64,000 nt of DNA from an uncultured Bacillaceae bacterium. Its GTDB lineage: Bacteria; Bacillota; Bacilli; Bacillales; Halobacillaceae. The DNA lies in contig CAVYYR010000005.1 of assembly GCA_963772785.1 (NCBI GenBank), positions 5,381-69,380 of the forward strand, read 5' to 3'. Positions within the stretch are counted from its first letter, which is position 1. Every line of letters starts with the position of its first letter. The translations under genes were made by a program, and so were the position numbers. The notes below the pieces were generated by a model, which saw nothing but the letters and a program-made list of their open reading frames with translations, was not told where the DNA came from and searched no databases. Of the stretch, positions 14,195-55,299 are shown piece after piece.

Positions 14195-14767
14195 GAAGAC
14201 TCAGTTTCGAGATACTGGTTGAAGAGGATGGTCCTTCTGGGGACGATTTCGCTTTCCTTGGGAATGCGCGGAGCCTCCTCAGGCTTCGCCTTCCGGGGTC
14301 TCCCCTGTCATTTTCATCCCACAGGAGTCTTCATCGTCCCCCTACGGACCTTGCGAAATAGGTGGTTGGAAACCCTCTACGAAGATGTCTGCTAAATGAA
14401 GATCGTTAACCTAAGAGCGACGCTGAATTTCTAGTGATTTCAAGGGTATACCCCCTGCTATAAAAGCGTTTATGGTTACTTGAGGATGTTACCTTCTCTT
14501 ATAGAAGGGGCCGTTTTATCCGCTCCTGGCTGGGTGGCGAAGGAAACGACAAGACTCCCGCGGGAGAAGGGCTAGGCGAGACCCCACAGGGAGTGACAGC
14601 GACCGAGGAGGCTTCTGGTAAAAAAGAGGATCGACTAAAATCGCCACGTCCTGTGGGAACGTCGATCGACCCTACATCGTGTAGGGCCGCAGTAAAGCGA
14701 GTTGTTTCCGCAGCCAGCCCTCCTCTATATTAAGTAATGGACCAAAAATATCTCGAAACTTAGTCTT
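14195..14767. repeat. Composite palindromic repeat, copy 1 (hairpin module Y, spacer, module X with insert C)
   Basis: Inverted ends GAAGACTCAGTTTCGAGATA / TATCTCGAAACTTAGTCTT; modules homologous to copies 2-4. Confidence 0.8.
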
Positions 14768-14995
14768 ACAGTAACCAGCCCTATAGTTTAATGATCTGCT
14801 TTGATGAAAATTGGATAGCCGGTTTAATAGATCCTTATTTTTACAAATTCTTAATGTTACTGAAATCCTGATAAGCCGGGAATTTTAATAGATAGGAACA
14901 ACTACATATTTTGTCCCGAGTCTCTGGATGTAGTATAGTTAGAATGAGCGTGAGAATTCTGACAATAGTGTAATAGGAAGAGAGGGGTACACCTA

Positions 14996-15961
14996 ATGAA
15001 TCAGCAAACATTTTTATATCAGCCAAAGATTTCTGATGTGATGAAAAATATTAATAAGGTGATGATTGGGAAAGAAGAAGCGACTTTACTAAGCATTGTG
15101 GCTTTGCTCGCTAAAGGGCACGTACTGCTTGAAGACGTCCCGGGCGTAGGAAAGACGATGCTTGTAAAAACCCTTGCCAAATCCTTAGATTGTGAGTTTA
15201 AACGAATTCAATTCACCCCAGATTTGCTGCCATCTGACGTTACAGGTGTTTCTATATATAATCCAAAAGAAATGGAATTCGAATTTAAGCCTGGTCCTAT
15301 TTTGGGAAATATTGTGCTGGCAGATGAGATTAACCGTACTTCTCCGAAAACACAATCCGCTTTACTTGAAGGTATGGAAGAAACGAGTATTACGGTGGAT
15401 GGAAACGCCGTGCCTCTTAAAGACCCTTTCTTTGTCATGGCGACCCAGAACCCCATTGAATATGAAGGAACGTACCCGCTGCCTGAAGCTCAGCTGGACC
15501 GTTTTTTGTTAAAAATGAAAATGGGATACCCTACTGCAAGTCAGGAAATGGAGATGCTGAGCCGGACCTCAGGTGGACATCCGATCAATGAGATTTCGTC
15601 TGTAATCACCCGCGATGAGCTGGTGGCTTTACAGAAAGAAGTCGAAGAAGTGTATGTGGACACAACCGTAAACCGCTACATTATTGACTTAGTTACAGGC
15701 ACTCGGAAGCACGAAGGTGTCTATCTGGGTGTGAGCCCTCGTGGATCGATTTCCCTCATGAAAGCTGCTAAAGCCTATGCATTTGTTCACGACCGTGATT
15801 ATGTCGTGCCCGATGATGTCCAGTACCTTGCCCCTTATGTTTTGTCACACCGTATGATTCTCACTTCTGAAGCGAACTTTGAAGGAGCAACGCCTGAAAG
15901 TATTATCCAAGAGCTGCTCTCCGCCACCTCCATTCCTGTAAAGAGGAATATTAGTGAATGA
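14996..15961 (+). CDS. moxR: MoxR-family AAA+ ATPase (YeaC-like)
   Basis: EDVPGVGKT, RIQFTPDLLPSD, ADEINR, NPIEYEGTYPLPEAQLDRF. Confidence 0.95.
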   Translation: MNQQTFLYQPKISDVMKNINKVMIGKEEATLLSIVALLAKGHVLLEDVPGVGKTMLVKTLAKSLDCEFKRIQFTPDLLPSDVTGVSIYNPKEMEFEFKPGPILGNIVLADEINRTSPKTQSALLEGMEETSITVDGNAVPLKDPFFVMATQNPIEYEGTYPLPEAQLDRFLLKMKMGYPTASQEMEMLSRTSGGHPINEISSVITRDELVALQKEVEEVYVDTTVNRYIIDLVTGTRKHEGVYLGVSPRGSISLMKAAKAYAFVHDRDYVVPDDVQYLAPYVLSHRMILTSEANFEGATPESIIQELLSATSIPVKRNISE

Positions 15962-17223
15962 GACAGACTCTTCAATTCACGGCTAAACTCCTCGTTGTAT
16001 TGACATTGTTTGCTGTTTTATTTTCTTATGCAATGTTTCAGGGAGGCTTTGTCAGCTGGTTTCTCTTCTACGCATTTCTTCCTTTTCTCGTCTACATGAC
16101 AGGGGTGCTGTTGTATCCAATAAACGACTGGAAGGTAGAACGTAAACTCTCAAAAAGGGTGGCGACAGGAGGCGAAAGTGTTGAGGTTGATGTGACACTG
16201 ACAAGAAGAATCCCTTTTCCAATTTATTATTGCGTCATTGAAGAATATCTCCCGGATTCCCTCAAAAAACAGGACCGTCATCTAGAGAAATTCAGAGATA
16301 TGGGGAAGGCGAGTGAATTTCAGCAGGACAGAATGGTGAAGAAAGTCATGTTCCCCTGGTTCAAGAGACATTTACGCTACCATTATGAGCTTGAGAAGCT
16401 TCCGCGGGGAGAGCACCAGTTCAAGGCTTTCCGCATCAAAACCGGGGACTTTTTTGGGTTTGTTAAAAAAGAGCACGTGTATCGGGAAGAGGATAAACTT
16501 CTTGTCTTTCCTTATAAGCGTCCAGTGAAGCTCCGTGAACGTGTGTACAGCTTTGAACAGGGAGCGAGTCCCTCTTTTAAACTCAATGAAAAAAACACGA
16601 ACGTCGTCACAGGTGTTCGTGAATATATGCAAGGTGACCGTTTTGCCTGGGTAGATTGGAAGACTACTGCCAAAAAGAATCAAATGATGACGAAAGAATT
16701 TGAGCAGGAAAAAAGCGTCGATATGCTCATCATTTTGAATGCGGTCTATCACCCTGCTATGAACCCTTTGAGTTTTGAAGGCTCCGTTGAATTCACGGCC
16801 TCTTTATTAGAAGAACTTCATAAAAAATCTTCGCAGCTTGCTTTCATGACACTTGGAGATGGACGAGCATATTTTCCTTTTCATCAGAACCATTCACAGA
16901 CACATAAGATTCACGGCCACTTAGCCAAGATAAAGCCACTTGGCCGTGTACCATTTTCGCAGCAGCTGGACCGTGAACGGGCTCAGATTCCTTCTGGGAC
17001 GATCGCTTTAGTGATTAGTCATCACTTAGATGAAAATACGGAACAATCCCTCGTTAAATTAGCAAAAAAGAGTAAGCGTCTCGTCTTTTTTTATGTGCGC
17101 CCCAGAGAGCAGATGAGCTTTCAGGACCATCAGCACATTAAGCTGTTAAAAAATCAGGGAATCGTTGTGCAAGTATTATCAGAAGAGCAATTGACCCGAC
17201 AAGAATTTGAGGTGAGTACCTGA
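15958..17223 (+). CDS. DUF58 domain protein (YeaD-like)
   Basis: GVREYMQGD, VDWKTTAK, KEFE; follows moxR. Confidence 0.9.
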   Translation: MRQTLQFTAKLLVVLTLFAVLFSYAMFQGGFVSWFLFYAFLPFLVYMTGVLLYPINDWKVERKLSKRVATGGESVEVDVTLTRRIPFPIYYCVIEEYLPDSLKKQDRHLEKFRDMGKASEFQQDRMVKKVMFPWFKRHLRYHYELEKLPRGEHQFKAFRIKTGDFFGFVKKEHVYREEDKLLVFPYKRPVKLRERVYSFEQGASPSFKLNEKNTNVVTGVREYMQGDRFAWVDWKTTAKKNQMMTKEFEQEKSVDMLIILNAVYHPAMNPLSFEGSVEFTASLLEELHKKSSQLAFMTLGDGRAYFPFHQNHSQTHKIHGHLAKIKPLGRVPFSQQLDRERAQIPSGTIALVISHHLDENTEQSLVKLAKKSKRLVFFYVRPREQMSFQDHQHIKLLKNQGIVVQVLSEEQLTRQEFEVST

Positions 17224-19427
17224 TGCCTAATACAATGAATGACCACCGCTCTGCTGTATTTAAACTTATGATTTATGTAATTGGTTTTCTATTATTCTGT
17301 GAATGGCTACTGCCTCTGGAATCTATTACGGAAACGAAAAATGTGACGATCTTTTTTATTTATGCAACGTTTTGTTTTTTCGTATCTTTTATTCAGGTTC
17401 CATGGTATTTATCTATGCCCCTCAAACTGTTGGGATTAGCCTTTATATTGGACGGACTCTATATTGCAGAAACAATTTTCAGCCGCAATTGGTTTTCTGT
17501 CCTATATGATCAAATTATCTTTAATATACAGGTGATCCAGGCGCAGGAATGGTGGCAGATGACTCCTTTGTTCCGGAGTCTTCTTTTTCTCATCCTGTTA
17601 TGGCTGATGAGTTACTTGCTGTTCTACTGGATTGTAGTGGCTAACCGTATGTTCGTGTTCGTACTGCTTACACTTATTTACGTTACGGTAGTCGATACGT
17701 TTACTGTCTACGATGGAAAATGGGCGATCATCCGCACGTTCGTTCTGGCAATGGCTGCTCTTGGTGTTACCAGCTTCCACAAAGAGATGGATAAAGAATC
17801 GATTGCTTTGGGCGGGTTTAAAAAAGGTCACTTATGGGTGCTGCCTTTACTTGCGATCATCCTGTTTTCAACAGTTGCGGCTTATGCTTCTCCCAAACTT
17901 TCTCCGCAGTGGCCGGACCCCGTTCCCTTTATCCAGAGTGCTGCCGAAGGCGCTGGTCCAGGAGGGGGCGGTGTCGTCCAAAAGGTCGGATATGGTGAAA
18001 ACGATAGTCGTCTCGGAGGATCCTTTATTCAGGACGATACCCGTGTCTTTACGGCCATGGCCGATGGGGAAAGGTACTGGAGGATTGAATCGAAAGATAC
18101 GTACACCGGAAAAGGCTGGGAAGATACATTGGAAGATCCGGTCCAAACGGTTTCTCCTGACAATATTCCTTTTCAAACCTTTACGGATGAAGTCGAAGTA
18201 GAAGAACAACAGTCCTTTGTCGAGTTAACTAGTGAAGCTGATTTTCGAAAACTGGTGTATCCATATGGCGCCACTTCACTTGACTCTTACCCCGAAGATT
18301 ATAGGCTTCAGATTCATGAAAATACTGGTGAAATGGATACACTTAAAGGAGATTCCCCAGCTAAGCTGAACAGATACGTCATCAACTATGATTTTCCTTC
18401 TTTTGAATATGATCAGCTGCGTGAATCGAGTACCGAAGACCCGGAAGAGATCAAAGAGAACTACTTGCAGCTTCCAGATTCCCTGCCGGGGCGAGTGCGC
18501 AACCTCGCCAGTCAAATCATAGAAGACGAGGACAATCGGTATGATAAAGCGAAAGCTGTAGAGTCGTATTTTTCATCGAATGGATTCGAATATTCAACGA
18601 CCGATGTACCGGTGCCTGATGAAAATGAGGACTATGTGAACCAGTTTTTATTCGAATCTCAAATTGGGTACTGCGATAACTTCTCGACCTCGATGGTGGT
18701 TATGCTTAGGTCTGAAGGCATTCCAGCGCGATGGGTAAAAGGGTTCACAGGTGGAGAGCGGATTGATGCGACTGAATCACCTTATACAGACGGACTCCAG
18801 AATAAATATGAAATCACAAGCGGCAATGCGCATTCGTGGGTGGAAGTTTATTTCCCAGATGTGGGCTGGGTTCCATTTGAACCAACGAAAGGGTTCACAA
18901 ACAACGCGGATTTCTATACAGATATAGAGACCGATGACAGTGACTCGGCAGCTTCAGGTTCAGATACGGAAACCCCCGAAGATAATATGGGCAACCCGCA
19001 GCAAATGGAAGATCAGGAAGCAGCGTCTGATTCTGAGTCCGTTAACATCAATTCAGAACAGAGCTATGTATGGGTCTATGTTCTGGCTGTATTTCTACTC
19101 CTTGCTCTACTCGTTCTGTATGTGACTCGTTACAAGTGGATCTCCGCTTTTCTCATTCGACGCTATCGAAAAAGAGAGGACGAGGAAACGTATGAAAAAG
19201 CCTACCAATATTTACTAAAAGTATTGGATCATAAAGGATTTAAGCGTAAACCCGAACAGACGCTCAGAGACTATGCCTTCGTCGTCGACCGCCACTTCCA
19301 GTCCAATGACATGCGGCGTTTGACGAATAATTATGAGCGGGTTCTGTACAGAAATGAGAGTCGCCGTTCCCATTGGCCAAAAGTCACTGAATTATGGGAA
19401 AATTTAATTAAAAAAGCATTGTCTTGA
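17223..19427 (+). CDS. Membrane transglutaminase-like protein (YebA/TgpA)
   Basis: N-terminal TM helices, GYCDNFS, AHSWVEVYFPDVGWVPFEPT, acidic linker and C-terminal TM helix. Confidence 0.9.
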   Translation: MPNTMNDHRSAVFKLMIYVIGFLLFCEWLLPLESITETKNVTIFFIYATFCFFVSFIQVPWYLSMPLKLLGLAFILDGLYIAETIFSRNWFSVLYDQIIFNIQVIQAQEWWQMTPLFRSLLFLILLWLMSYLLFYWIVVANRMFVFVLLTLIYVTVVDTFTVYDGKWAIIRTFVLAMAALGVTSFHKEMDKESIALGGFKKGHLWVLPLLAIILFSTVAAYASPKLSPQWPDPVPFIQSAAEGAGPGGGGVVQKVGYGENDSRLGGSFIQDDTRVFTAMADGERYWRIESKDTYTGKGWEDTLEDPVQTVSPDNIPFQTFTDEVEVEEQQSFVELTSEADFRKLVYPYGATSLDSYPEDYRLQIHENTGEMDTLKGDSPAKLNRYVINYDFPSFEYDQLRESSTEDPEEIKENYLQLPDSLPGRVRNLASQIIEDEDNRYDKAKAVESYFSSNGFEYSTTDVPVPDENEDYVNQFLFESQIGYCDNFSTSMVVMLRSEGIPARWVKGFTGGERIDATESPYTDGLQNKYEITSGNAHSWVEVYFPDVGWVPFEPTKGFTNNADFYTDIETDDSDSAASGSDTETPEDNMGNPQQMEDQEAASDSESVNINSEQSYVWVYVLAVFLLLALLVLYVTRYKWISAFLIRRYRKREDEETYEKAYQYLLKVLDHKGFKRKPEQTLRDYAFVVDRHFQSNDMRRLTNNYERVLYRNESRRSHWPKVTELWENLIKKALS

Positions 19428-19452
19428 TTCCTGTCAGAACCGTTGATAGAAT
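19424..19452 (+). promoter_or_regulatory. SigA promoter of guaA
   Basis: TTGATT, 17 nt, TAGAAT. Confidence 0.65.
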
Positions 19453-19475
19453 GAATGGAAATTAGACGCATTCTT

Positions 19476-19630
19476 CCTTCGTATATCCTCGAGAATATGG
19501 CTCGAGAGTCTCTACCGGGGCACCGTAAATGTCCTGACTATGAAGGTGGGGATCACGTGACGAGATATGCACGGATGGATTTCTGCCTTCGCCTGAATTA
19601 TTTTAACGGGAAGGTGGGAATCCTTTTTTT
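19476..19630 (+). ncRNA. Guanine riboswitch with terminator upstream of guaA
   Basis: CCTTCGTA...ATATGG...GTCTCTACC...CCGTAAA...GACTATGAAGG (C74); terminator 19577-19630. Confidence 0.92.
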
Positions 19631-19678
19631 ATAGGCCCCTGGTCGTGCGTTTTTTCTAATGAAAAGGAGTGGAAAGAT

Positions 19679-21217
19679 ATGGAGCAGGTCCAAGGTATGA
19701 TCCTGGTACTGGATTTCGGAAGTCAATATAACCAATTAATAACCCGCCGTATACGTGAGTTCGGGGTTTATAGTGAACTTCACTCTCATAAAATGACGGT
19801 TGAAGAGATCAAGGAACTGAACCCAAGCGGAATTATTCTTTCTGGCGGACCTAACAGCGTCTACGGAGAACATAGCTTCCGTTGTGACGAAGGTCTGTTT
19901 GATCTGGGGATTCCGGTGCTTGGCATTTGCTATGGCATGCAGCTGATGACTCACCATTTCAAAGGAAAAGTGGAGCGTGCGAATGAACGTGAGTACGGAA
20001 AAGCAGAGATTAACATAGCCGAAGACCCGGCTATATTTAAGAAAACTCCTCGTAATCAGACGGTCTGGATGAGCCATAGTGACAAAGTTATTGATCCGCC
20101 TCAAGGCTTTGTCGTGGATGCGACTAGTCCTTCCTGCCCGGTAGCTGCGATGAGCAACGGAGAAATTAATATGTACGGTGTTCAGTTTCACCCGGAAGTG
20201 CGTCATTCCGAATATGGCAATGACATCCTGCGCAGCTTCGTATTTGATGTATGTGATGCGAAGGACGACTGGACAATGGAGCACGTGGTGGAAATGGAAG
20301 TAGAGAAAATCCGCGATCAAGTCGGGGACCGTAAAGTATTGTGCGCGCTAAGTGGCGGGGTAGATTCCTCTGTTGTTGCAGCGCTGATTCACCGTGCCAT
20401 CGGAGACCAGCTGACTTGTATTTTCGTGGATCACGGACTGCTTCGAAAAAATGAAGCAGACGATGTCATGCGCACGCTTGGCGACGGTTTCAATATGAAC
20501 ATTATTAAAGTAAATGCCAAAGACCGATTCCTAAGCAAGCTTGAAGGCGTATCCGATCCTGAACAGAAGCGGAAAATCATCGGTAATGAGTTTATTTACG
20601 TGTTTGATGATGAGGCTGAAAAACTGAAGGAAATTGATTATCTCGCTCAGGGGACTCTTTATACCGATATTATTGAGAGTGGTACAGAAACGGCTCAAAC
20701 GATTAAATCCCACCACAATGTCGGGGGTCTTCCTGAGGAAATGGAACTGCAGCTGATTGAGCCTTTGAACACACTCTTCAAAGACGAAGTGCGTGCGCTT
20801 GGAACTGAGCTTGGTGTACCAGAACATATTGTTTGGCGCCAGCCATTCCCAGGACCTGGACTTGCGATTCGTGTATTAGGTGCGATTACAGAAGAGAAGC
20901 TGAAAATCGTTCGTGAATCTGATGCTATCTTGCGTGAAGAAATCAAGGAAGCCGGACTTGACCGCGATATTTGGCAGTACTTCACCGTCCTTCCAGATAT
21001 TCGATCCGTAGGAGTTATGGGTGATGAGCGGACGTATGACTATACAATCGGCATTCGTGCGGTTACATCCATTGATGGGATGACGTCCGACTGGGCTCGC
21101 ATTCCCTGGGACGTTCTTGAGAAAATCTCCACCCGCATAGTGAATCAGGTCGATCACATCAACCGAGTGGTTTATGACGTAACGAGTAAGCCGCCGGCTA
21201 CGATTGAATGGGAATAA
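19679..21217 (+). CDS. guaA: GMP synthase (glutamine-hydrolysing)
   Basis: [42 protein letters not shown]. Confidence 0.98.
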
Positions 21218-21292
21218 ACGAACATTAAAGTTATTTTTAACAAATAATGTTCGGGAATAGGGTTGACGAACTACAGTCTTCCCTAGTAAGAT
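21216..21292 (+). promoter_or_regulatory. PurR PurBox pair and SigA promoter of pbuG
   Basis: AAACGAACATTA 21216-27 and inverted TAATGTTCGGG 21245-55; TTGACG 21263-68 and TAAGAT ~21287-92. Confidence 0.75.
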
Positions 21293-21315
21293 AGAGAAAA
21301 ATTAAGAATTAGTAA

Positions 21316-21482
21316 CACCGCCGTATAATTTTGGGGATAAGGCCCATGAGTTTCTACCGGACCGCCGTAAACTGGTCTGACTACGTTGGTGAATAGTTGA
21401 CGCCTTGCACGTGGTTTGTGCCTGGCTCATCTATTACATCCGTAGATAGGTAGACACTCTTGAGCATTCAAGAGTGTTTTTT
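21316..21482 (+). ncRNA. Guanine riboswitch with terminator upstream of pbuG
   Basis: CGTATAA...GG...GTTTCTACC...CCGTAAA...GACTACG (C74); terminator ACACTCTTGA-GCAT-TCAAGAGTGT plus T-run 21454-21482. Confidence 0.92.
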
Positions 21483-21550
21483 ATTTGGGTTTTAACATAG
21501 AGAGAACTCTCCGGATGGAGCGGATGGTGACAGTGAGGGAGGAAATAAGA

Positions 21551-22885
21551 ATGAGAAAATTTTTTAATTTTAAGGAACTGGGCACGAATTATCGTACGGA
21601 ATTCATGGCGGGTCTTACAACATTTCTAGCGATGGCCTACATTCTGTTCGTTAATCCGTCTACGCTTGCTCTTGATGGGATTGAGCAGCTTCCTGAAGGA
21701 ATCACGCGTATTGATAAAGGGGCTGTATTTACTGCGACGGCGATTGCTGCTGCGGTTGGTACATTAATTATGGGGGTATTTGCTAAATATCCAATTGCCC
21801 TTGCACCTGGTATGGGATTGAATGCATTTTTTGCTTATACAGTAGTTCTTGGGTACGGTATTCCTTGGGAAACGGCACTGGCAGGTGTATTAGCATCCGG
21901 ACTTATTTTTATTGTATTAACGGTAACCGGCCTGCGCCAAATGATCATTGATGCAATACCTGGGAACTTGAAACTTGCCGTCGGAGCTGGGATTGGCTTG
22001 TTTATTGCTTTTATCGGGTTTCAAAACGCGGGTATCGTTCAGAACAGTGATGCGACGCTTGTACAGCTTGGAGATTTAACGGCTGGACCAACGATGCTTG
22101 CGATTTTTGGGATTATTGTATCGGTCGTATTCCTTTCTCTAGGTATTAAAGGCGGTATTTTCTACGGTATGGTCCTGACTTCGATTGCCGGAATGGTGAC
22201 AGGGCTGATTGCACCGCCTACTGCAGTCAATGACGTCGTAGGTTCTGCGCCAAGCGTGGCACCAACTTTTGGGGCGGCATTAACCCACTTTGGTGATATC
22301 TTTACAATTGAAATGCTGGTCGTTATTCTAACCTTCTTGTTTGTCGACTTCTTCGACACGGCGGGAACGCTTGTAGCGGTGGCTACACAGGCAGGATTCA
22401 TGAAGGATAATAAATTACCTCGTGCCGGACGCGCGCTGTTTGCGGATTCCGCAGCGACAGTTGTAGGATCCGTTGTAGGTACATCAACGACTACTTCTTA
22501 CATCGAATCCACGGCAGGCGTAGGAGCCGGGGGACGAACAGGCTTTGCCTCTGTTGTAACGGCTGGCTTTTTCTTACTGGCGCTATTCTTTTCGCCATTA
22601 TTATCAGTTATAACCGCACAGGTCACTGCACCTGCCTTAATTATTGTCGGTGTGCTGATGGCATCCACTTTGAAAAATATCGACTGGGATCAATTTGAAA
22701 TTGGTGTTCCGGCCTTCTTTACGATTGCCGCTATGCCGCTTACGTACAGTATTGCTACGGGAATCGCAATCGGATTCATCTTTTATCCGATTACGATGCT
22801 GTTAAAAGGACGTTCTAAAGAAATTCACCCAATTATGTACTTCTTGTTCGTCATCTTTATTCTTTACTTTGTATTCTTAGCTTAA
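21551..22885 (+). CDS. pbuG: NCS2-family guanine/hypoxanthine permease
   Basis: AGLTTFLAMAYILFVNP, APGMGLNAFF, DFFDTAGT, YIESTAG; preceded by riboswitch. Confidence 0.93.
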   Translation: MRKFFNFKELGTNYRTEFMAGLTTFLAMAYILFVNPSTLALDGIEQLPEGITRIDKGAVFTATAIAAAVGTLIMGVFAKYPIALAPGMGLNAFFAYTVVLGYGIPWETALAGVLASGLIFIVLTVTGLRQMIIDAIPGNLKLAVGAGIGLFIAFIGFQNAGIVQNSDATLVQLGDLTAGPTMLAIFGIIVSVVFLSLGIKGGIFYGMVLTSIAGMVTGLIAPPTAVNDVVGSAPSVAPTFGAALTHFGDIFTIEMLVVILTFLFVDFFDTAGTLVAVATQAGFMKDNKLPRAGRALFADSAATVVGSVVGTSTTTSYIESTAGVGAGGRTGFASVVTAGFFLLALFFSPLLSVITAQVTAPALIIVGVLMASTLKNIDWDQFEIGVPAFFTIAAMPLTYSIATGIAIGFIFYPITMLLKGRSKEIHPIMYFLFVIFILYFVFLA

Positions 22886-22933
22886 TGGAGGTATCTCGGG
22901 GTGCAGCTTATTCCATATAAGTTTCCGTTTGTT

Positions 22934-23649
22934 GAAGGCTCAGTTTCGAGATAAATGGGTCCGTTACGTTAGATGGATAAGGGTTGGTGGGGAAATAACT
23001 CGCTTTCCTATGGGGGAACGGTGAGCTTCCTCGCTCGTTTCACTCCCTGCGGGATCTCACCTAGTTCCTTCTCCCATGGGAGTCTCGCCATTTCCCCACC
23101 AACCCAGCCATTTCATGTAAACGGACCCTTCTAGAGGAGAAAGATTCTCCTGCTTAATCTGGGTTAAATGCTTATATGACAGGCTATTGCGGATAGTTAC
23201 CTCCTGAAAATAGGTAGAAAAACACATGGTCTAATTCCTGATAACACATGTGATGTTTTAAGTGGTTTCGAGCTTCTGATTTGGCAAGGTCCGGAGGGGG
23301 ACGATGAAGACTCCTAGGTTAAAAGCGGAAGCACCTTGGTCAGCGACGTATGGACTGGACTGAGCTGGCGGAGATAAAGAAAACACGAAGAGCGGAGCGA
23401 TTCGATGTTGCCTTATCGTACAGAAGTGAGGGAAGTCTCACTAGACGCTAGGTGCTGGAGCTGGATAACTCTCCTTGTCGTTTATGTTCTGATTTTCGAG
23501 AAAGAATAAAAAAAGTGTAAGAATGGGATAAACATGATCGGTGAGACCCCGGAAGGCTTTAGCCTGAGGAGGTTCAGCACATGCCCACGGAAAGCGAATC
23601 GTCCCCCGGAGGATCTCCCTCCTAAACCAATATATCGAAACTGAGTTTT
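22934..23649. repeat. Composite palindromic repeat, copy 2 (module X, spacer, module Y with insert B at 23316-23524)
   Basis: Inverted ends GAAGGCTCAGTTTCGAGATA / TATATCGAAACTGAGTTTT; 71 bp identical to copy 3. Confidence 0.85.
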
Positions 23650-23752
23650 TAATAATCCAGCCCTATAACGGAATAAGTCTCTTATAAAAAATCAACAATA
23701 ATCTTTTCCTGAGCTCTTATAATAAACACGGCAGTCGTGGTGACTGCCGTGT

Positions 23753-24178
23753 TTATTCATCTTCAAGATGGCGGATGCTGAGTGGTTTTTGACGCGTTTG
23801 GTCCGTAACGTGTCGATAAAGCTGGATAACGAGCAGGCCGTGCTTATAGCTGGCTTCCATTTTGTCGCTTCGAACAGGAAAAGGCAGGTCGATGCTACGT
23901 TCGAAAGTTCCGTCCGCAATTTCAGACATAAGCTGATGACCGCCTCGATGGTTAATCTCAATTTTTCCTTTTATCGTGAGGGTGGTGTGATCGACGAGTA
24001 CTTCTACATTTTTCGGATGGCTCATTCCAGGGATACTCACATAGCATAAAAGTTCGTTATCATACTGATACATATTGATATAAGGAATAGAAGGCTTCAT
24101 CATTCCCTCAAAGTCACCCCAGAATTCATTACCGAAAAACCGGTCTAAATTGGATTTCCAGTCTTTAAATTGATTCAT
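23753..24178 (-). CDS. Hsp20/alpha-crystallin family protein
   Basis: GTFERSIDLPFPV, ASYKHGLL; ATG 24178 after GGAGG. Confidence 0.85.
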   Translation of the reverse strand: MNQFKDWKSNLDRFFGNEFWGDFEGMMKPSIPYINMYQYDNELLCYVSIPGMSHPKNVEVLVDHTTLTIKGKIEINHRGGHQLMSEIADGTFERSIDLPFPVRSDKMEASYKHGLLVIQLYRHVTDQTRQKPLSIRHLEDE

Positions 24179-24320
24179 GTCATCACCCTCCATAATTTGT
24201 CAGTAATTGCGGTGAAAAATGATTGTGTCACAGACTTCTCATAGTTTATAGTGTATGCAAGAAAGAGCCCATGGGTGAATATCCTGAATAGTAAGAGGGG
24301 CAGAGGCAGGAGGGTGCTGG

Positions 24321-24893
24321 ATGTTTGAAAATCCGTTATTGCTGATCGGGATTATTTTAGTGGTCAACATCGTATATGTATCGTTTTTAACGTTGCGAAT
24401 GATTTTTACATTAAAAGGCAGGCGCTATATGGCGGCGTTTGTAAGTATGTTTGAGATTGTTACCTATATATATGGTCTTGGGATTGTACTTGAGCGTTTG
24501 GGTCAGATTGAAAATGTTATTGCTTACGCCATCGGTTACGGTCTTGGTGTGATCGTCGGGATGAAGATTGAAGAGAAGCTTGCTTTAGGGTATATTACGG
24601 TTAACGTTATTTCTTCAGACCCGGATATTGATTTTACCCGCAGGCTTCGTGAGAAAGGATACGGAGTTACGAGCTGGTATGCTTATGGTATGGAAGGTGA
24701 TCGGTTGGCGATGCAGATTTTAACTCCACGAAAATATGAGCTCGCTTTGTATGAAACCATTCGCACGATTGATCCTAAAGCATTTATCATAGCTTATGAA
24801 CCTAAGCAGATTCATGGCGGATTCTGGGTTAAATCCGTTAAGAAAGGAAAGATCCGCGAAGATGCCGAAAAACAACAACAAGAAGCGCTTTGA
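24321..24893 (+). CDS. DUF2179 membrane protein (YebE-like)
   Basis: [33 protein letters not shown]. Confidence 0.88.
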
Positions 24894-25140: not shown

Positions 25141-25165
25141 GGAAGCAGAAATTGCATAAAAGGAA

Positions 25166-25323
25166 CCTCATATAGGACGGGAATACGGCCCGTTCGTCTC
25201 TACCTGGGAACCATGAATTCCCGGACTATGAGGGGAGTCCAAGCATTCTATATCAATCAACAGTCGACACGTATGCCTGTTCAACTCCTCTCATGATTTG
25301 AGGGAGCTTGAGCAGGTTTTTTT
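25166..25323 (+). ncRNA. Guanine riboswitch with terminator upstream of purE
   Basis: P1 CCTCATA/TATGAGG, GTCTCTACC, GACTATG (C74); terminator 25275-25323. Confidence 0.9.
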
Positions 25324-25342
25324 AATGAAAGAAGGGATAAAC

Positions 25343-26951: not shown

Positions 26952-26969
26952 AGACCGAGGAGGAAGACG

Positions 26970-41720: not shown

Positions 41721-41788
41721 GTATGGATGGTTTTAAAACTCTTGTTAAATTTCATAAAAGGCTTATTAAGCAATAGGGCCGGATGGTG

Positions 41789-42293
41789 TAAGACTCAGTT
41801 TCGAGGTTGAGAGGAAAGGTCCTGCGGGGGATGATTCGCTTTCCGCGGGCATGTGCTGAGCCTCCTCAGCTCAACTCTCCGGGGTCTCACCGATCATGTT
41901 TATCCCACAGGAGTCTACATCGTCCCCCCTCCGGACCTTGCCAAATCAGAAGCTCGAAACCATTTAAACCATCACCTGCGTGATGAGGAATTAGACCATG
42001 TAGTTTTGTACCTATCCCCAGGATCTAAAGGCCCGCAAAGCCTTTCATAAAAGCATATAATTCAGATTAAGCAGGAGAATCTTTCTCTTCTAGTAGGGTC
42101 CGTTCGCAGTATTATAGTTGGGTTGGTGGGGAAATGGCGAGACTCCCGTGGGAGAAGGATCTAGGTGAGACCCCACAAGGAGTGAAAACGACTGAGGAGG
42201 CTCACCAGTTCCCCCACAGGAAAGCGAGTTATTTCCCCACCAACCCTTATCCATCTAACGTAACGGACCCATTTATCTCGAAACTGAGTCTTC
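41789..42293. repeat. Composite palindromic repeat, copy 3 (uninterrupted; reverse orientation of copy 2)
   Basis: Inverted ends TAAGACTCAGTTTCGAG / TATCTCGAAACTGAGTCTTC; empty site TATCCC-AC-AGGAGTCT at 41901-41916. Confidence 0.85.
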
Positions 42294-42372
42294 AACGAAA
42301 GGGAGCTTTACTGGAAGTTCAGCGGGGAGATTTTTAACAGAGTGGAACTTATATATAAAGATAGGAGTGTAG

Positions 42373-44308: not shown

Positions 44309-45001
44309 ATGAACAAACTGAGCGAGTGGAAGCATGTCTTCAAACTGGATCCGCAAAAGACGTTATCGGATCATGACCTGCAATTGATCTTGGAATCAGG
44401 TACGGACGCTGTGATCATCGGAGGCACGGACGGTGTAACCTTTGAAAATGTGAGTGATTTGTTTGACCGTGTCCAGCCCTATGATGTGCCGTGTCTGTTG
44501 GAAGTTTCAGATATAGAAGTGATTGCTCCTGAGTTTGATGGGTATCTCATTCCGATGGTGCTGAACAGCCGTGAGAAAAAATGGATGCTCGATATTCATC
44601 ATCAAGCGGTGAAGGAGTATGGCGACATAATGGATTGGGATCAGATGGTGGTTGAAGGCTATTGCGTCTTAAATGAGGAAGCTAAAGTTTTCAAACACGC
44701 CGAATGTTATCTCCCTGATGAAGAGGATGTTCTCGCCTATGCAAGGATGGCTGAACATATGTTTCATTTGCCGGTTTTTTACTTAGAATACAGCGGCACT
44801 TACGGAGATCCTGAGCTTGTTAAAAAGATAACCAATGAATTACAACATACAACAGTCGTTTACGGCGGCGGTATCAGGTCCAGCGAGCAGGCAGAAGAAA
44901 TGAGTGCTTGTGCAGACGTGATTGTCGTTGGCAACGTGCTGTACGAAGACCTTGACGCTGCCTTAAAGACCGTCAGCGCAGCCAAGAATTCTAATTTTTA
45001 A
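44309..45001 (+). CDS. pcrB: Heptaprenylglyceryl phosphate synthase
   Basis: HVFKLDP, SGTDAVIIGG, FYLEYSG, YGGGI. Confidence 0.95.
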   Translation: MNKLSEWKHVFKLDPQKTLSDHDLQLILESGTDAVIIGGTDGVTFENVSDLFDRVQPYDVPCLLEVSDIEVIAPEFDGYLIPMVLNSREKKWMLDIHHQAVKEYGDIMDWDQMVVEGYCVLNEEAKVFKHAECYLPDEEDVLAYARMAEHMFHLPVFYLEYSGTYGDPELVKKITNELQHTTVVYGGGIRSSEQAEEMSACADVIVVGNVLYEDLDAALKTVSAAKNSNF

Positions 45002-45017
45002 TTAAGGATGGTGTACG

Positions 45018-49279
<4,262 letters not shown>

Positions 49280-49396
49280 AACAGACAGGCGCCACTCCTC
49301 TAATGGAAACGAGTGGAGCTTTGGGGACAGGCAGGAAAGCCCGGCACAATTCACGGAAGATCATCGTTTCACGTAATTACATGGGGAGTGGGATAC

Positions 49397-50542
49397 ATGA
49401 GGAAGTGGCATGCACTGTTGGTTGGTTCATTGCTTTTGGTTAGCGCGTGTACGCCAGTGTTTGATAATAAAGATGAAGTCATTCAGGAAACAAAAGATAA
49501 GGACAGTAATCAGGCGATCATTCCGAATCATAGCATATCGGAAGAAACGTACCGCATGATTTTATCGGAAGACCGTTCCAAAGTTTCAAAAGCCCGGTCG
49601 GTCACGGTAAATCAGATGGGGAACCGGATGGACATCTCCGAGTTTGAGCAAGGCCTCAGGCGGCATTCTAAGGAATACTACGATCCGGAGGAATACTTTT
49701 TTCAGCCTGGACAGTTTCTTAGTGGAGATACAGTGTTTGACTGGCTGGGTAGATACGATGAGAGGCACAATGAAGGAGGTTTGAACCCGGAACTTATCGA
49801 AGACGAAGCAACAGCTGAACAGTTCCGTGAAAACCCTAAATATATATCGAACATTGTGGAGCAGGATTACCTGGTTAAAAAAAATGATGATGTCGTGGAA
49901 TTGGAAGGAATAACCATTGGTATTTCCTTACGAACCGTTTACAACTTCACTGCGGAAGGAAGGAATTATAAAGAAGACCATTCCACAGAAGAGCTTTTGA
50001 AAAAGGGAAAAGAGTATGCTGGAACGATTCTAAAGCGACTGCGAGAACGGGATCAGCTGAAAAACGTACCAGTGGTATTTGCTCTTTATGAAGAGGAAGA
50101 AGCAAGCTCCAAGGTTCCTGGTCAATTTTTAACCAAAACAATGGTGAAAGGCTCTTCTTCATCCATTGGTGACTGGAAAGACATTAATGAAAAACACGTC
50201 CTTTTCCCTTCGAAGGAAGCGGAGAATGACTACTTTGAAGATTCGCAGATATTCTCGGATTTCCGAGAGGAAGTATCTGATTACTTCCCGAACTTCGTAG
50301 GGATGATTGCCAACGGATTTTATGTGGATAATGAACTTCAGCAAGTGTCTATTGATATTCCGATCCAGTTCCGCTCCCAGTCAGAAGTGGTCGGATTCAC
50401 TCAGTATGTGTACGGTCTGGTAGTTGAAATGTTCCCGGACCACTATGATGTAGAAGTAAAAATTAACAGTATGGATCAACAGGAAAGCCTCATTGTCCAG
50501 CAGGCTGGCAAAGAGGAACCTTTCGTTCATATCTATGAATAA
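49397..50542 (+). CDS. camS: CamS-family lipoprotein
   Basis: Lipobox LVSAC; follows ligA as in B. subtilis (yerH). Confidence 0.88.
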   Translation: MRKWHALLVGSLLLVSACTPVFDNKDEVIQETKDKDSNQAIIPNHSISEETYRMILSEDRSKVSKARSVTVNQMGNRMDISEFEQGLRRHSKEYYDPEEYFFQPGQFLSGDTVFDWLGRYDERHNEGGLNPELIEDEATAEQFRENPKYISNIVEQDYLVKKNDDVVELEGITIGISLRTVYNFTAEGRNYKEDHSTEELLKKGKEYAGTILKRLRERDQLKNVPVVFALYEEEEASSKVPGQFLTKTMVKGSSSSIGDWKDINEKHVLFPSKEAENDYFEDSQIFSDFREEVSDYFPNFVGMIANGFYVDNELQQVSIDIPIQFRSQSEVVGFTQYVYGLVVEMFPDHYDVEVKINSMDQQESLIVQQAGKEEPFVHIYE

Positions 50543-50551
50543 ATATCTTGG

Positions 50552-50586
50552 GCCGCGTGGATGCTAAACATCGACGCGGCTTTTTT
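50552..50586 (+). terminator. Terminator of pcrB-camS
   Basis: GCCGCGT...ACGCGGC plus T-run. Confidence 0.75.
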
Positions 50587-50770
50587 GTATTTAGAGATAT
50601 GCAAATTTCGAGCAAATTCGATTTACTATACTTATATGGACGAAAATTTGCTATGTGAAGAGTTGTATTTAGTTTAAGTATTCAAATTAAGCTAAATCAG
50701 ATTATTTGCGGTTATTTGATTTGTGGAAGAGATGAAGTTGCGGTAAAATAAGCTTTGGAAAAGCCGTGGT

Positions 50771-50785
50771 AATTTTCGAAAAATT
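50771..50785. promoter_or_regulatory. Candidate CodY box upstream of pruA
   Basis: AATTTTCGAAAAATT, 13/15 match to AATTTTCWGAAAATT. Confidence 0.5.
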
Positions 50786-50829
50786 ATCCGGCGTCTGTAT
50801 GTATTTATTCCTTTAGGAGGCGGGTAACC

Positions 50830-52380
50830 ATGGTGGTCCCTTACAAACATGAACCATTTACCGATTTCAGTATTGAAGAAAATCGCAGAGCACTTGAATC
50901 TGCTCTTAAGCAGGTGGAAGCAGAGTTAGGAAAGACGTATCCTTTGATTATCGGCGGCGAACGGATTATGACCGATGACAAAATTGAAGTGGTGAATCCA
51001 GCAGATAAGAAAGAAGTAATTGGGTACGTCGCAAAAGCAAACCAGGATCTCGCAGAAAAAGCGCATAGAATTGCCGACGAGACCTTTAGCTGGTGGCGCA
51101 AAACAAAAGCTTCGTTCCGTGCTGACATCCTATTCCGTGCCGCAGCCATTGTCCGCCGGCGTAAGCATGAGTTTACAGCTCATCTTGTTAAAGAAGGCGG
51201 AAAGCCGTGGAAAGAAGCAGACGCCGATACAGCGGAAGCCATCGATTTTATGGAGTTCTACGCTCGTCAGATGCTTGATATTGATAAAGGCGTAGAAATC
51301 AATTCCCGTCCAATTGAAAATAACCGATTCCATTACATCCCGCTTGGTGTAGGCGTGGTTATTTCTCCGTGGAACTTTTTGTTTGCGATCATGTGCGGTA
51401 CCACCGTCGCAGCTATGGTATCCGGAAACACGGTTTTACTCAAACCCGCAAGCTCCACACCTATTATTGCTTATAAAATGATGGAGGTCCTTGAGGAAGC
51501 CGGTCTTCCTGCCGGAGTCATTAATTATATTCCGGGGAGCGGAAAAGAAGTGGGGGATTACCTTGTAGACCACCCTCGGACTCGATTTATCAGTTTCACT
51601 GGATCCCGTGAAGTTGGTACCCGAATCTTCGAACGCGCGGCTAAAGTCCATGAAGGTCAAAAGTGGCTGAAGCGCACCATCATTGAAATGGGCGGTAAAG
51701 ATACGATCATCGTTGATGAAGATTCCGACCTCGAACTGGCCGCTGACGCCATTACCTATTCTGCTTTTGGCTTCTCCGGCCAAAAGTGTTCGGCATGCTC
51801 CCGCGTGGTCGCCCATAAAGCTGTGTACGATGAGCTGCTCGAGCGTGTCGTCCAGAAAACAAAGAATGAAGTCAGTCATGGCAATCCTGCTGATAACCGC
51901 TCGTACATGGGGCCGGTCATTGATCAGGGGGCGTATGACAAGATTCTTAATTACATTGAAATTGGCAAGAAAGAAGGGAAGCTGATGGCGGGAGGAAAAG
52001 GCGATAACAGCAAAGGCTGGTTTATTGAGCCAACCGTCTTCGCAGATCTGGATCCTGACAGTACGATTATGCAGGAAGAAATCTTTGGTCCTGTGTTAGG
52101 GTTTATGAAAGCTTCTTCTTTTGATGAAGCATTGGAAATTGCCAACAACACAGATTATGGGCTTACCGGTGCTGTTATTACCAATAACCGTCAGCACATT
52201 GAGAAGGCCAGAGAAGATTTCCATGTTGGAAACTTATACTTTAACCGCGGATGTACGGCTGCGATTGTCGGCTACCATCCATTTGGAGGCTTTAATATGT
52301 CCGGTACCGACTCCAAAGCCGGTGGCCCTGACTATTTGTATCATCATATGCAAGGTAAGACCACCTCTGAAATGCTGTAA
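50830..52380 (+). CDS. pruA: 1-pyrroline-5-carboxylate dehydrogenase
   Basis: [36 protein letters not shown]. Confidence 0.96.
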
Positions 52381-52389
52381 ATCATGATT

Positions 52390-52433
52390 AAACCCATTCT
52401 CTGCGATAAAAAAAGCGGAGAATGGGTTTTTTT
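52390..52433 (+). terminator. Terminator after pruA
   Basis: AAACCCATTCTC...GAGAATGGGTTT plus T-run. Confidence 0.8.
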
Positions 52434-52741
52434 TAGAAAATGGAGCATACTACATGTAGCAGCAAAAGAGAAGAAATAGATAAAAAATGGTAAACACACC
52501 AATAAAATTAAAAAAATTTAATGAATGTTTATAGTTATTTCAGCGAATATGTGTATATAAATACAATATTTGCGCATAAAAATTCACAATCGAGAATATG
52601 TCTCAATTTTTGCAATGTTCTTGTAATTATACTATGATATAGTTGTACTTGTGTTTGACTTTTGAGACTTCTATGACTTATGTATCACAAGTAAAAACTA
52701 TTGCATAGGAGTGCATATTACGACATACAGGAGGTGAAAAT

Positions 52742-52870
52742 GTGTTTGAACTAGCGACTGCAGCTGCTTCATATTCCATTTCAGGGGCAACCTGGTTCTG
52801 GTTGTTTGTCCCTATGCCTATCTTAATTATTTTATCCATTATTACACTATTTACTGAGAGGAGCGACTAA
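52742..52870 (+). CDS. 42-aa single-TM small protein upstream of putP, not in ORF track
   Basis: GGAGGTG SD 52730-36, GTG 52742; MFELATAAASYSISGATWFWLFVPMPILIILSIITLFTERSD; stop 6 nt before putP. Confidence 0.7.
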   Translation: MFELATAAASYSISGATWFWLFVPMPILIILSIITLFTERSD

Positions 52871-52876
52871 AAAAAC

Positions 52877-54388
52877 ATGAGTACAGCAACGTTAATAACG
52901 TTTATTATTTATCTAATTGGTATGCTTGGTATCGGTTTTGCCGCATATCGTTTAACAAGTGATTTATCTGACTATGTATTAGGCGGCCGCCGTCTCGGTC
53001 CAGGAGTAGCCGCACTTAGTGCCGGTGCCTCTGATATGAGTGGCTGGTTGCTATTAGGTCTTCCAGGTGCTATTTACGCATCCGGTTTATCCGAGGCGTG
53101 GATTGGTGTAGGTCTCGCTATTGGTGCTTACCTAAACTGGCAGTTTGTTGCCCGCCGTCTGCGTGTCTTTACAGAAGTGGCGAACGATTCCATTACGGTA
53201 CCGGACTATCTTGAAAACCGTTTCCGTGATAAATCCCACATTCTGCGTGTAATTTCCGCAGCTGTTATTTTACTATTCTTCACATTCTACACCTCTTCCG
53301 GTATGGTTGCCGGCGCGAAGCTGTTCGAAGCTTCCTTTGCATTAAGCTATACACAAGCTCTTTGGCTTGGAGCTATTGTAACGATATCATATACCTTCCT
53401 TGGAGGATTCCTGGCTGTAAGCTGGACAGACTTTGTTCAGGGTATCCTTATGTTCCTGGCTCTAATTGCCGTGCCAATTGTAGCTATTTCTGAAATGGGA
53501 GGCTGGAATAACGCCGTCGACGCTGTTGGTCAAATCGACCCGGCTCACTTGAACATGGTACAGGGAGTAGGCGCATTAGCTATTATTTCATCTCTAGCCT
53601 GGGGTCTTGGTTATTTCGGGCAGCCCCACATTCTTGTACGTTTCATGGCCCTTCGTTCACCTAAAGATGTTCCGAAAGCCCGTTTTATCGGTGTAGGCTG
53701 GATGGTTCTAGGTCTTTACGGTGCGATCTTCACAGGTCTTGTTGGACTTGCTTACATTAACACAGCTGATGTTGGTGAGTTGAGCACGTTTAATGCAGAA
53801 GTTATGAGTGAAGGCGGCGTGCAGATGCTTGCCGATGCTGAGAAGATCTTTATTACCTTCTCACAAATTCTGTTCCACCCTGTCATCGCAGGTATCCTGC
53901 TTGCAGCGATTCTGTCTGCAATCATGAGTACGATTGACTCTCAGCTGCTTGTATCTTCTTCTGCTCTTGCAGAGGACTTCTATAAAGCGCTGTTCCGTCC
54001 AAACGCAACTGAGCGTGAGCTTGTATGGGTTGGACGTGTAGCGGTTGCCGGTATCGCCTTAATTGCCGTATTGATTGCCGGAAACCCGGACAGTTCTGTA
54101 CTTGATCTTGTATCTTATGCCTGGGCAGGATTCGGTGCCGCATTCGGTCCGATCATCATCTTGTCCTTGTTCTGGAAAGGCATTACCCGTAACGGTGCGC
54201 TTGCCGGTATTATTGTCGGTGCGGTAACTGTTGTTGTATGGGGTGACTTCCTGAGCGGTGGTATCTTTGATCTTTATGAAATCGTACCTGGTTTCATCTT
54301 GAACTTAATTGTAGCTATTGCGGTCAGTGCTGCAGGTGACCCGCCGAAAGAAATTATTGAAGAATTTGATGAAGCAGCCCGTCGTTAA
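52877..54388 (+). CDS. putP: Sodium/proline symporter (PutP/OpuE)
   Basis: DYVLGGR, SAGASDMSGWLLLG, GQPHIL, AIMSTIDSQLL. Confidence 0.95.
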   Translation: MSTATLITFIIYLIGMLGIGFAAYRLTSDLSDYVLGGRRLGPGVAALSAGASDMSGWLLLGLPGAIYASGLSEAWIGVGLAIGAYLNWQFVARRLRVFTEVANDSITVPDYLENRFRDKSHILRVISAAVILLFFTFYTSSGMVAGAKLFEASFALSYTQALWLGAIVTISYTFLGGFLAVSWTDFVQGILMFLALIAVPIVAISEMGGWNNAVDAVGQIDPAHLNMVQGVGALAIISSLAWGLGYFGQPHILVRFMALRSPKDVPKARFIGVGWMVLGLYGAIFTGLVGLAYINTADVGELSTFNAEVMSEGGVQMLADAEKIFITFSQILFHPVIAGILLAAILSAIMSTIDSQLLVSSSALAEDFYKALFRPNATERELVWVGRVAVAGIALIAVLIAGNPDSSVLDLVSYAWAGFGAAFGPIIILSLFWKGITRNGALAGIIVGAVTVVVWGDFLSGGIFDLYEIVPGFILNLIVAIAVSAAGDPPKEIIEEFDEAARR

Positions 54389-54403
54389 TTCGATGAGCCT
54401 GCT

Positions 54404-54437
54404 AAAAGGATCTCCGGTCTTCCGGAGATCTTTTTTT
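54404..54437 (+). terminator. Terminator after putP
   Basis: GATCTCCGG...CCGGAGATC plus T-run. Confidence 0.8.
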
Positions 54438-54480
54438 GTTTCATAATGTATGGCTTGTTACACATAAGCTCTTGATTCTG

Positions 54481-55299
54481 TAAGATTTGATTTCGAAACC
54501 CTCGACACGACGTGGCGTTCTTAGTCGAACATCCCTTGTGCTGAGCCTCGAGCTAAAGCTCTCCGGGGTCTCACTGATCATTTATCCCGCTCTTACACTT
54601 TGGGAAGTGGCAAGCGTCAATTATGACCTAAACGACAAGGAGAGCTATCCAGCTCCAGCACCTAGCGTCTAGTGAGACTTCCCTCACTTCTGTACGATAA
54701 GGCAACATCGAATCGCCCCGCTCTTCGTGTTCTCTTTATCTCCGCCAGCTCCAGGCTAGTTTTGGTGCCTAGCCTCTCGAGGTCTTAAGTCCAACCATGA
54801 CAGGAAGAAGGGCGCTTCCTTTCATGGTCGTTCTTAAGCTTGTCGAGGCTGGACAAGGCACCTCCACATTTGAACGTCCAGTCCATACGCCGCTGACCAA
54901 GGTGCTTCCGCTTTTAACCTAGGAGTCTTCAACGTCCCCCTCCGGACCTTGCCGAATCAGAAGCTCAAAACGACTTTATTCTACACACGCATGAAAAGAA
55001 ATAACTGCATTTACGTTAATTAATCTCAGGTTGGAACTATGCGGGATAGCCTGTTATATAAGCATTTTTAGTCAGGATAAGGAAACGGATCATCATTTTT
55101 GAAGGGTCCGTTCCTCTTCATACAATTGGGCTGGTGGGGAAATGGCGAGACTCCCATGGGAGAAGGGACTAGGTGAGATCCCACAGGGAGTGAAACGAGC
55201 GAGGAAGCTCACCGTTCCCCCATAGGAAAGCGAGTTATTTCCCCGACCACCCCTTTTCCATTTAACTCAACGGACCTAATAATCTCGAAATCGAGTCCT
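54481..55299. repeat. Composite palindromic repeat, copy 4 (degenerate left end; insert B 54589-54920 containing insert B2 54752-54875; C fragment ~54500-54535)
   Basis: Module X differs from copy 2 at 2 positions in ~107 bp; insert B collinear with 23316-23524. Confidence 0.82.

Follow-up and report, generated by a model that had tools for sequence, protein, structure and literature searches.

Four long palindromic repeats lie in a 64,000-nucleotide stretch of an uncultured Bacillaceae genome (the window, C5:5381-69380 of the draft assembly), and they most probably belong to a high-copy family of non-autonomous DNA transposons, or MITEs (miniature inverted-repeat transposable elements), of Halobacillus and Thalassobacillus, built of two layers, namely an outer shell and an interior that is swapped between copies. 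The host genome, a 3.76-Mb draft of 42.1% GC (labelled G000; other G numbers are relatives and C numbers are contigs), belongs to a Halobacillus close to H. halophilus: its PurL is 99% identical to those of G009, G001 and G021, and 84–87% identical to those of G017 and G011. A preliminary description, made from the letters of the window alone, had called the repeats a non-autonomous family resembling either MITEs or repetitive extragenic palindromes (REP) and bacterial interspersed mosaic elements (BIME). The first resemblance agrees with the terminal repeats, 8-bp duplications, approximately 209 loci and occupancy differences reported below, and the second was abandoned. The interspecies comparisons rest mainly on one relative, G009.

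BLAST searches with the four window copies located these ≈ 209 loci in G000, covering 107 kb or 2.8% of the genome. The core that bounds the interior of the element was matched 316 times, giving 111 clean inward-facing pairs, and the core-to-core sizes peaked near 500 and 562 bp; when these size classes were compared, most of the ~62-bp gap was attributed to a 67-nt motif, Bacillaceae-1, present in the longer one. Contig pairs C6/C10, C4/C9 and C11/C16 have 11–14 kb in common at 98.8–99.7% identity (for example, C6:1-14418 with C10:1-14422), due to assembly redundancy or recent large duplications, and the copy counts are slightly inflated by this. Almost all paired elements (108 of 109) are intergenic, with a median distance of 45 bp to the 3′ end of a neighboring gene genome-wide, which extends to the whole genome the earlier remark that each window copy lies just past a gene end or terminator; convergent gene pairs flank 31% of the elements against 11% of the background. 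Among the sequence records searched, the exact 20-mer core GAAGACTCAGTTTCGAGATA occurred only in Halobacillus, Thalassobacillus, a few other Bacillales and two uncultured-Bacillaceae bins. Within the genus, the full composite at 83–87% identity was confined to G000, G001, G009 and G021, a version of 67–68% identity was present in three further Halobacillus species, and in the remaining species the matches were limited to a ~200-bp unit consisting of one module and the adjoining end. A search for carriage on plasmids yielded a single weak partial match.

The shell consists of long imperfect terminal inverted repeats of ~75–90 bp. Aligned outward from the core, the ends fall into two types with 129 representatives each, F1 (..AAGCTCCCGTTTGTTGAAGA-core) and F2 (..GCTTATTAAACAATAGGGCCGGATAGTGGAAGA-core), which have the terminus GGCTCTGTTAAA..TGTTGATTTT in common (the end pattern was also written as GGCTCTGTTAAA..TGTTGATT). 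The shell is asymmetric, since 87 of 88 classifiable elements combine one F1 with one F2 end. In a fixed register, the sequences directly outside the two ends matched at no fewer than seven of eight positions in 9 of 34 pairs, against 0.6 expected; when small offsets were allowed, 17 of 34 pairs reached this level (4.3 expected from shuffles), and five duplications were perfect (0.7 expected). The duplicated target comprises 8 bp of AT-rich DNA with a T-rich first position, an A-rich last position and A/T between them. The empty G009 site that corresponds to C14:246149 reads TTAATTCA, and the filled one reads TTAATTTA, element, TTAACTTA; at C19:4190, a filled site with target duplication likewise stands against a short empty site. 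This is the footprint of DDE-type transposition.

Identical occupancy in all relatives would count against mobility, and filled and empty sites were found to differ among species. With the window copies numbered 1 to 4 from left to right, each of the four sites is filled in those of the closest species in which its two flanks could both be located, and the sizes vary: copy 2 measures 785 bp in G000 and 564–592 bp in the relatives, and copy 4 measures 878 bp in G000 and 624 and 305 bp in the relatives. G017 and G011 have no element at the sites of copies 2 and 4. Moreover, when 54 loci of G000 were placed over 860 kb of G009, ~10% of them differed in occupancy, in both directions.

The interior is bounded by the nearly invariant, inverted 20-bp core, which is the most conserved 20 bp of the element, and it is composed of two homologous hairpin modules of ~110 nt, X and Y, lying in opposite orientation around a spacer. 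The homology and opposite orientation of the modules had been recognized in the preliminary description, and the window copies of them fold as RNA with −41 to −71 kcal/mol (z of −3 to −8); the spacer, also called less conserved there, is the least conserved part of the element. Pairing was analyzed separately for the two module types, as RNAalifold found no structure in the mixed set. For the X type (93 distinct sequences), 35 pairs were 97.7% canonical and 11 of them were compensated, versus 0–2 in shifted controls; for the Y type (61 sequences), 40 pairs were 93.3% canonical and 10 were compensated, versus 1–6 in shifted controls. Compensatory changes keep the stems paired, so a structure formed by either single-stranded DNA or RNA is under constraint. 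The best-conserved part of the spacer (family consensus ~296–345; 42040–42095 in copy 3) carries TTGAAC-N17-TATAAA followed by AAGGAGG and a small hairpin. This consensus motif points into module Y and may be an internal promoter; the window copies fail the promoter scan.

Further hairpin units are nested at fixed sites of the modules:

Bacillaceae-1 motif: 80 genomic copies, 79 in elements, between GAGGAGGCTCAG and GCCGGAAAGCGA
Z hairpin (~125 bp): 46 copies, 45 in elements, within GGAAAG^CGAGTT
Insert B (~209 bp): 21 copies, 21 in elements, after GA(A/G)ACTCC(T/C)
Hairpin of 121–124 bp: 8 copies, 8 in elements, at a fixed position inside insert B

Insert B occupied the equivalent site of X- or Y-type modules every time (21 genomic copies). 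Each nested unit may have been inserted once and then spread by recombination, or it may home repeatedly to its site.

Weinberg et al. 2010 (PMC2864571 and supplement) presented Bacillaceae-1 (RF01690) as a small RNA that stands on its own, acts in trans and turns up in numerous gene contexts; its discoverers considered the RUCCU loops suited to a dimeric protein (PMC2864571). G000 has this 67-nt motif of two hairpins and RUCCU-type loops at full score, with 79 matches above the threshold; unlike the free-standing form, however, 79 of the 80 copies are plugged into a hairpin module of the MITE at a single fixed site. X-linked and Y-linked subtypes can be told apart by different compensatory pairs (GTTCGAC/GTCGAAC and GATCGAC/GTCGATC, respectively). 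Beyond this genome, Bacillaceae-1 exceeded the threshold in 59 of 121 sampled Bacillales genomes in multiple copies, with the copy number being a lower bound in at least 15 of these; arrays of ~215-bp units occur in some Bacillales, and the flanks in other genera resemble the H modules (the X and Y type) and B modules. In G101, which belongs to another Bacillales genus, tandem Bacillaceae-1 copies lie at C42:197515-198295 and C1:234352-235460 with a spacing of ~215–490 bp, so the motif also forms BIME-like clusters outside Halobacillus.

These observations bear on a different reading, in which the elements are chiefly structured-RNA genes or regulatory parts (Bacillaceae-1 small RNAs, stabilizers in 3′ untranslated regions, or terminators) that were spread by selection for RNA function. 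It is compatible with the MITE reading but, in our opinion, unlikely. The strong compensatory covariation in the modules and between the Bacillaceae-1 subtypes, the Rfam match and the location right after gene 3′ ends all fit it, as does, in our own reading of the consensus, the spacer motif pointing into module Y. However, single-stranded DNA hairpins predict compensatory change equally well, the interior is found in both orientations relative to the neighboring genes, scanning copies 1 and 3 for promoters and terminators gave nothing consistent, and the terminal repeats, target duplications and presence/absence polymorphism show transposition.

Returning to the MITE and its two layers, comparison of 19 orthologous sites in G000 and G009 gave median identities of 0.93 for the flanks and 0.89 and 0.84 for the two shell ends, versus 0.66 for the interiors; for random pairs, the identity was 0.67 for shells and 0.72 for interiors. 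Orthologous interiors thus resemble each other no more than random copies do, and they are often flipped. The best-matching interior was the orthologous one at only 2 of the 19 sites and was otherwise found at another locus, with 78–99% identity. For example, the interior of G009 site 533 is ~99% identical to the G000 interior at C14:46970, with the identity stopping at the cores, and the shell of the same site aligns with its true orthologue, C14:51629. At the site of copy 3, the interior has one orientation in G000 and G009 and the opposite one in G001 and G041, with the shell unchanged, and the spacer has been replaced between G000 and G009. Copies within G000 have mosaic tracts of 96–99.7% identity in common. 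As judged from these alignments, the shells stay at their loci, and the interiors are swapped among the copies in either orientation. The most likely route would be gene conversion by ectopic homologous repair with priming in the conserved cores, and breaks at the long palindromes are a plausible trigger; being identical inverted repeats, the two cores would let a donor interior be copied either way round. Priming in the cores would account for both the random orientation of the interiors and the extreme conservation of the cores themselves.

The same data might be explained by a site-specific invertible or exchangeable cassette, with a dedicated recombinase acting on the 20-bp cores to flip and swap interiors among shells. 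The orientation ratio of 31:28 relative to F1→F2 of the asymmetric shell, the exchange tracts ending at the cores and the outstanding conservation of these 20 bp could all be expected of such an enzyme. In addition, solo hairpins of ~60 bp, made of two MITE cores placed “inside-out” over a ~20-nt loop resembling the inner flank of F2, are present in 21 of 26 species in 1–5 copies per genome (examples are L120:4082-4139, corresponding to G009:C1:670082-670137, as well as L044:456-513 and L015:6035-6092), and in G009 and G007 a gene for a 280-aa tyrosine recombinase has one of them ~107 bp downstream. Nevertheless, flipped orthologous interiors are only 75–81% identical, so they were replaced and not simply inverted. 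G000 has no solo hairpin and lacks that tyrosine recombinase, possessing only the XerC/XerD-like pair found in every species, and the recombinase stands near a solo hairpin in only two of the approximately five genomes that carry it. As a candidate agent, the enzyme was rejected, being located beside the hairpin in two genomes only and in none of the contigs of G000, and we give the cassette explanation little credence.

A broader version of the MITE reading, which we put forward tentatively and with more doubt than belief, would treat the shell and core as a docking frame with the hairpin modules as exchangeable cassettes. Palindrome breaks repaired via the cores would continually reshuffle and re-orient the interiors, including Bacillaceae-1, across ~200 intergenic sites; the modules, far from being junk, would function as units of RNA or single-stranded DNA that bind protein, and Bacillaceae-1 would be the cargo of a mobile, self-homogenizing repeat system.

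As a MITE, the family shows terminal inverted repeats, an 8-bp duplication, a small non-coding multi-copy body and insertion polymorphism; an autonomous partner with the same termini is missing from this list. The shell would be moved in trans by a DDE transposase into AT-rich 8-bp targets, usually just past gene 3′ ends. The enzyme is probably of the ISL3 or IS6 family, at roughly even chances, because both families have GG(C/T)TCT.. termini and 8-bp duplications. ISL3-family ends start with GGCTCT.. and are accompanied by an AT-rich 8-bp duplication (ISfinder features). The MITE fits in its hexamer and its duplication; however, the spacing inside its ends is different, and its first nine bases fit IS6-type ends (GGTTCTGTT..) at least as well. 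ISL3 transposases (PF01610) are encoded in 4 of 26 Halobacillus species, among them G009, with three identical ISL3 copies that have the ends GGCTCTAGAATATTTGTTGGGGTAG and a ATTTTTTT duplication; IS6 transposases were found nowhere in the genus. The preliminary description had suggested a DDE transposase beside the copies, and the check revealed none with matching ends.

Several results weigh against this reading of the family and of its exchange. Half of the 34 analyzed pairs are without a clear target duplication, and several seemingly empty sites turned out to be partial deletions or replaced DNA. The Pfam ISL3 and IS6 models had no match in G000. The ISL3 element of G009 and the MITE have only GGCTCT and a TTGTTG motif in common, in different spacing, and the MITE terminus was found at 0 of 30 ISL3 loci in a sample of 200 Bacillales genomes, where the near matches were due to chance and lay in other sequence. 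Finally, gene conversion is inferred from sequence patterns. Since G000 has no transposase gene of these families, its copies are probably stranded.

Candidates for a resident parent were also sought in G000. The sole core pair enclosing an open reading frame (ORF), C13:492226-493968, was rejected as an autonomous parent, as it proved to be an IS4-like gene inserted in a module X. No outer termini were paired 1–4 kb apart, and the other repeats revealed by self-BLAST of G000 (a group II intron, two IS110-family elements, a TnpB-type element and IS3) included none with MITE ends. The intron is present in three near-identical copies (C13:805588-807472, C13:254696-256569 and C17:68320-70198) with a 412-aa reverse transcriptase/maturase frame, and its C17 copy adjoins a MITE.

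A Y1 transposase, either of the REP-associated tyrosine transposase (RAYT) or of the IS200 type, acting on REP/BIME- or REPIN-like units was another partner suggested at the outset. The palindromic hairpin modules would suit it, the RUCCU loops of Bacillaceae-1 were once proposed to bind a dimeric protein, and Y1_Tnp-family genes occur in 22 of 26 Halobacillus genomes. However, REP, BIME and REPIN are short palindromes of 20–40 nt, linked to RAYT and lacking target duplication, in contrast to elements of 0.5–1 kb with 8-bp duplications and 75–90-bp terminal repeats, which Y1 systems do not make. Moreover, the RAYT-like gene of G000, on contig C7, has another palindrome, CACCTCAGGTCATCCA..TGGATGACCTGAGGTG, on either side and is tied to a different REP. 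Such an origin is very improbable. The gene in question (189-aa Y1_Tnp, G000:C7:47736-48410) and its bracketing palindrome, CACCTCAGGTCATCCATAATCTGGATGACCTGAGGTG, resemble a classical REP/RAYT pair.

The suggestion of an IS110 partner was correct in that IS110-family elements do lie at or inside copies, and it failed in that they are invaders of the element and not its mobilizers. The first (428-aa frame) is present at C10:30546-32142 and C13:472611-474207 (loci L216-L219), 99.9% identical; the insertion point of each copy directly follows TTTAACAGAG and is 2 nt away from the outer tip of a MITE, at an F1 end in one case and at an F2 end in the other. The second (440-aa frame) is present at C1:139366-141184 and C13:4125-5946, 93% identical, with both copies within module X at CCCGCAGGAG^TCTTCGCC. 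IS4321 and IS5075, of the IS1111/IS110 family, target the inverted repeats of Tn21-type transposons, and insertion sequences targeting REP have reportedly been described in one study. The elements found here similarly insert at fixed points of transposon repeats; in comparison with the known repeat-targeting IS110/IS1111 elements, the MITE targets are new, and the elements are not part of the MITE.

All four copies of the preliminary description are present in the window. The 14-nt core ACTCAGTTTCGAGA, with up to two mismatches, occurs there seven times against 0.46 expected from shuffles, always at a copy end; seven of the eight ends are thus marked, and only the left one of copy 4 is too degenerate to match. 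The four loci are joined by direct and inverted matches of 100–133 nt (repeat finder). The copies proved to be longer by 55–70 bp on each side than had been described, as conservation continues beyond the core for ~53 bp at the F1 end and ~68 bp at the F2 end, up to the GGCTCTGTTAAA terminus. That they are non-coding was borne out, with no ORF inside them matching Pfam. The architecture is not fixed, contrary to the earlier claim, since the inserts differ among copies and the orientation of the interior relative to the outer ends varies. The parts of the copies are as follows:

14145-14834, unstranded, copy 1, full element: degenerate F1-type end, X, spacer, Y with Bacillaceae-1, F2-type end
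14137-14144 (TTATTTGT) and 14835-14842 (TTATTTTT), copy 1, probable target duplication, 7/8 match
14199-14212 (+) and 14751-14764 (−), copy 1, cores
14230-14350 (−), copy 1, module X (H module, X type): weakly similar to Rfam tsr24 (E = 0.045)
14529-14719 (+), copy 1, module Y (H module, Y type): split by Bacillaceae-1
14619-14685 (+), copy 1, Bacillaceae-1 (RF01690): 63.6 bits against a gathering score of 35; in module Y between GAGGAGGCT.. and GCCGCAG.AAAGCGA
22886-23715, unstranded, copy 2, full element: degenerate F1-type end directly adjoining the stop codon of a permease gene upstream, Y (reverse), spacer, X (reverse) with insert B, F2-type end
22938-22951 (+) and 23633-23646 (−), copy 2, cores
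23316-23524 (+), copy 2, insert B (~209 bp): in the X-type module between GAAGACTCCT and GGGATAAACATG
41725-42346, unstranded, copy 3, canonical ~620-bp form: F2-type end, core, X, spacer, Y, core, F1-type end
41820-41935, 41936-42095 and 42096-42270, copy 3, X, spacer and Y, respectively
41793-41806 (+) and 42276-42289 (−), copy 3, cores
54440-55368, unstranded, copy 4, degenerate element: left core decayed (TTTGATTTCGAAAC)
About 54589-54920, copy 4, truncated X module with insert B
54752-54875 (+), copy 4, third-level nested hairpin (124 bp) within insert B
55104-55270, copy 4, module Y
55283-55296, copy 4, right core

The duplication of copy 1 is only probable because its left terminus is degenerate. 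The whole of copy 3, folded as DNA, forms one giant hairpin (−105.7 kcal/mol, z = −7). The only Rfam matches within the copies were Bacillaceae-1 in module Y of copy 1 and the weak tsr24-like match on module X; in the window, the RF01690 threshold was passed by that nested sub-module alone and not by the element as a whole. The window also has an unrelated repeat of another kind, ACCTCAGGTCATCCA, at 3427-3475, 10779-10803 and 48952-48976, which in its palindromic form CACCTCAGGTCATCCATAATCTGGATGACCTGAGGTG is the one bracketing the RAYT-like gene on contig C7. Three purine riboswitches (19459-19560, 21301-21403 and 25148-25248) precede purine transport and salvage genes and the pur operon; they are ordinary and place the window in the pur region.

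A match to a curated family had been named in advance as a result that would remove novelty. One sub-module does match a curated family, RF01690, and the element as a whole matches none; the family was not found in any paper or database. The literature search found no published description of it and nothing on Halobacillus repeats or Bacillus ISL3-MITEs. Among known systems, DDE-derived bacterial MITEs (Correia/nemis, RUP and MITEAba12; PMC3184786) are similarly non-coding, with terminal repeats and a fixed-length AT-rich duplication, and similarly exist in hundreds of intergenic copies with long hairpins and no transposase of their own (PMC3184786). The present family differs in its much longer termini (75–90 bp) in two versions that pair F1 with F2, in its composite interior of nested hairpins that is swapped in either orientation with the shell in place, and in having no co-resident parent insertion sequence. 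The bcr1-bcr18 repeats of the Bacillus cereus group are intergenic, have properties of mobile elements and keep a cruciform-like fold through compensatory changes (PMC3184786; Okstad 2004; Kristoffersen 2011); bcr1, ~155 bp long and with 5-bp duplications, does not extend beyond the B. cereus group (PMC3184786). They resemble our family as Bacillales intergenic repeats with a compensated fold, and bcr1 is set apart by its description (length and duplication size), with no bcr-related match in the Rfam scan. Kunst et al. 1997 reportedly described a structured 190-bp repeat of Bacillus subtilis that has some ten copies between genes, shows compensatory changes and may carry a hairpin insert. To our knowledge, its copy number is low, and no terminal repeats or target duplications have been reported for it. 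B. subtilis has 8 Bacillaceae-1 hits (PMC8208703), and this repeat is probably their home.

The curated “small RNA” Bacillaceae-1 should be re-read in the light of these data: in G000, it is almost exclusively a plug-in of transposon hairpins, and both its annotation and the search for its function should change. Additionally, the MITE family supplies defined targets for two IS110-family elements, which are of current interest because IS110-family recombinases find their targets by an RNA guide. One family accounts for 2.8% of the genome and for most long intergenic regions of the H. halophilus clade. Its stable shells, as opposed to the swapped and flipped interiors, would make it a clear example, in nature, of ectopic repair among scattered palindromes, in a host suited to such study as a cultivable, genetically tractable halophile.

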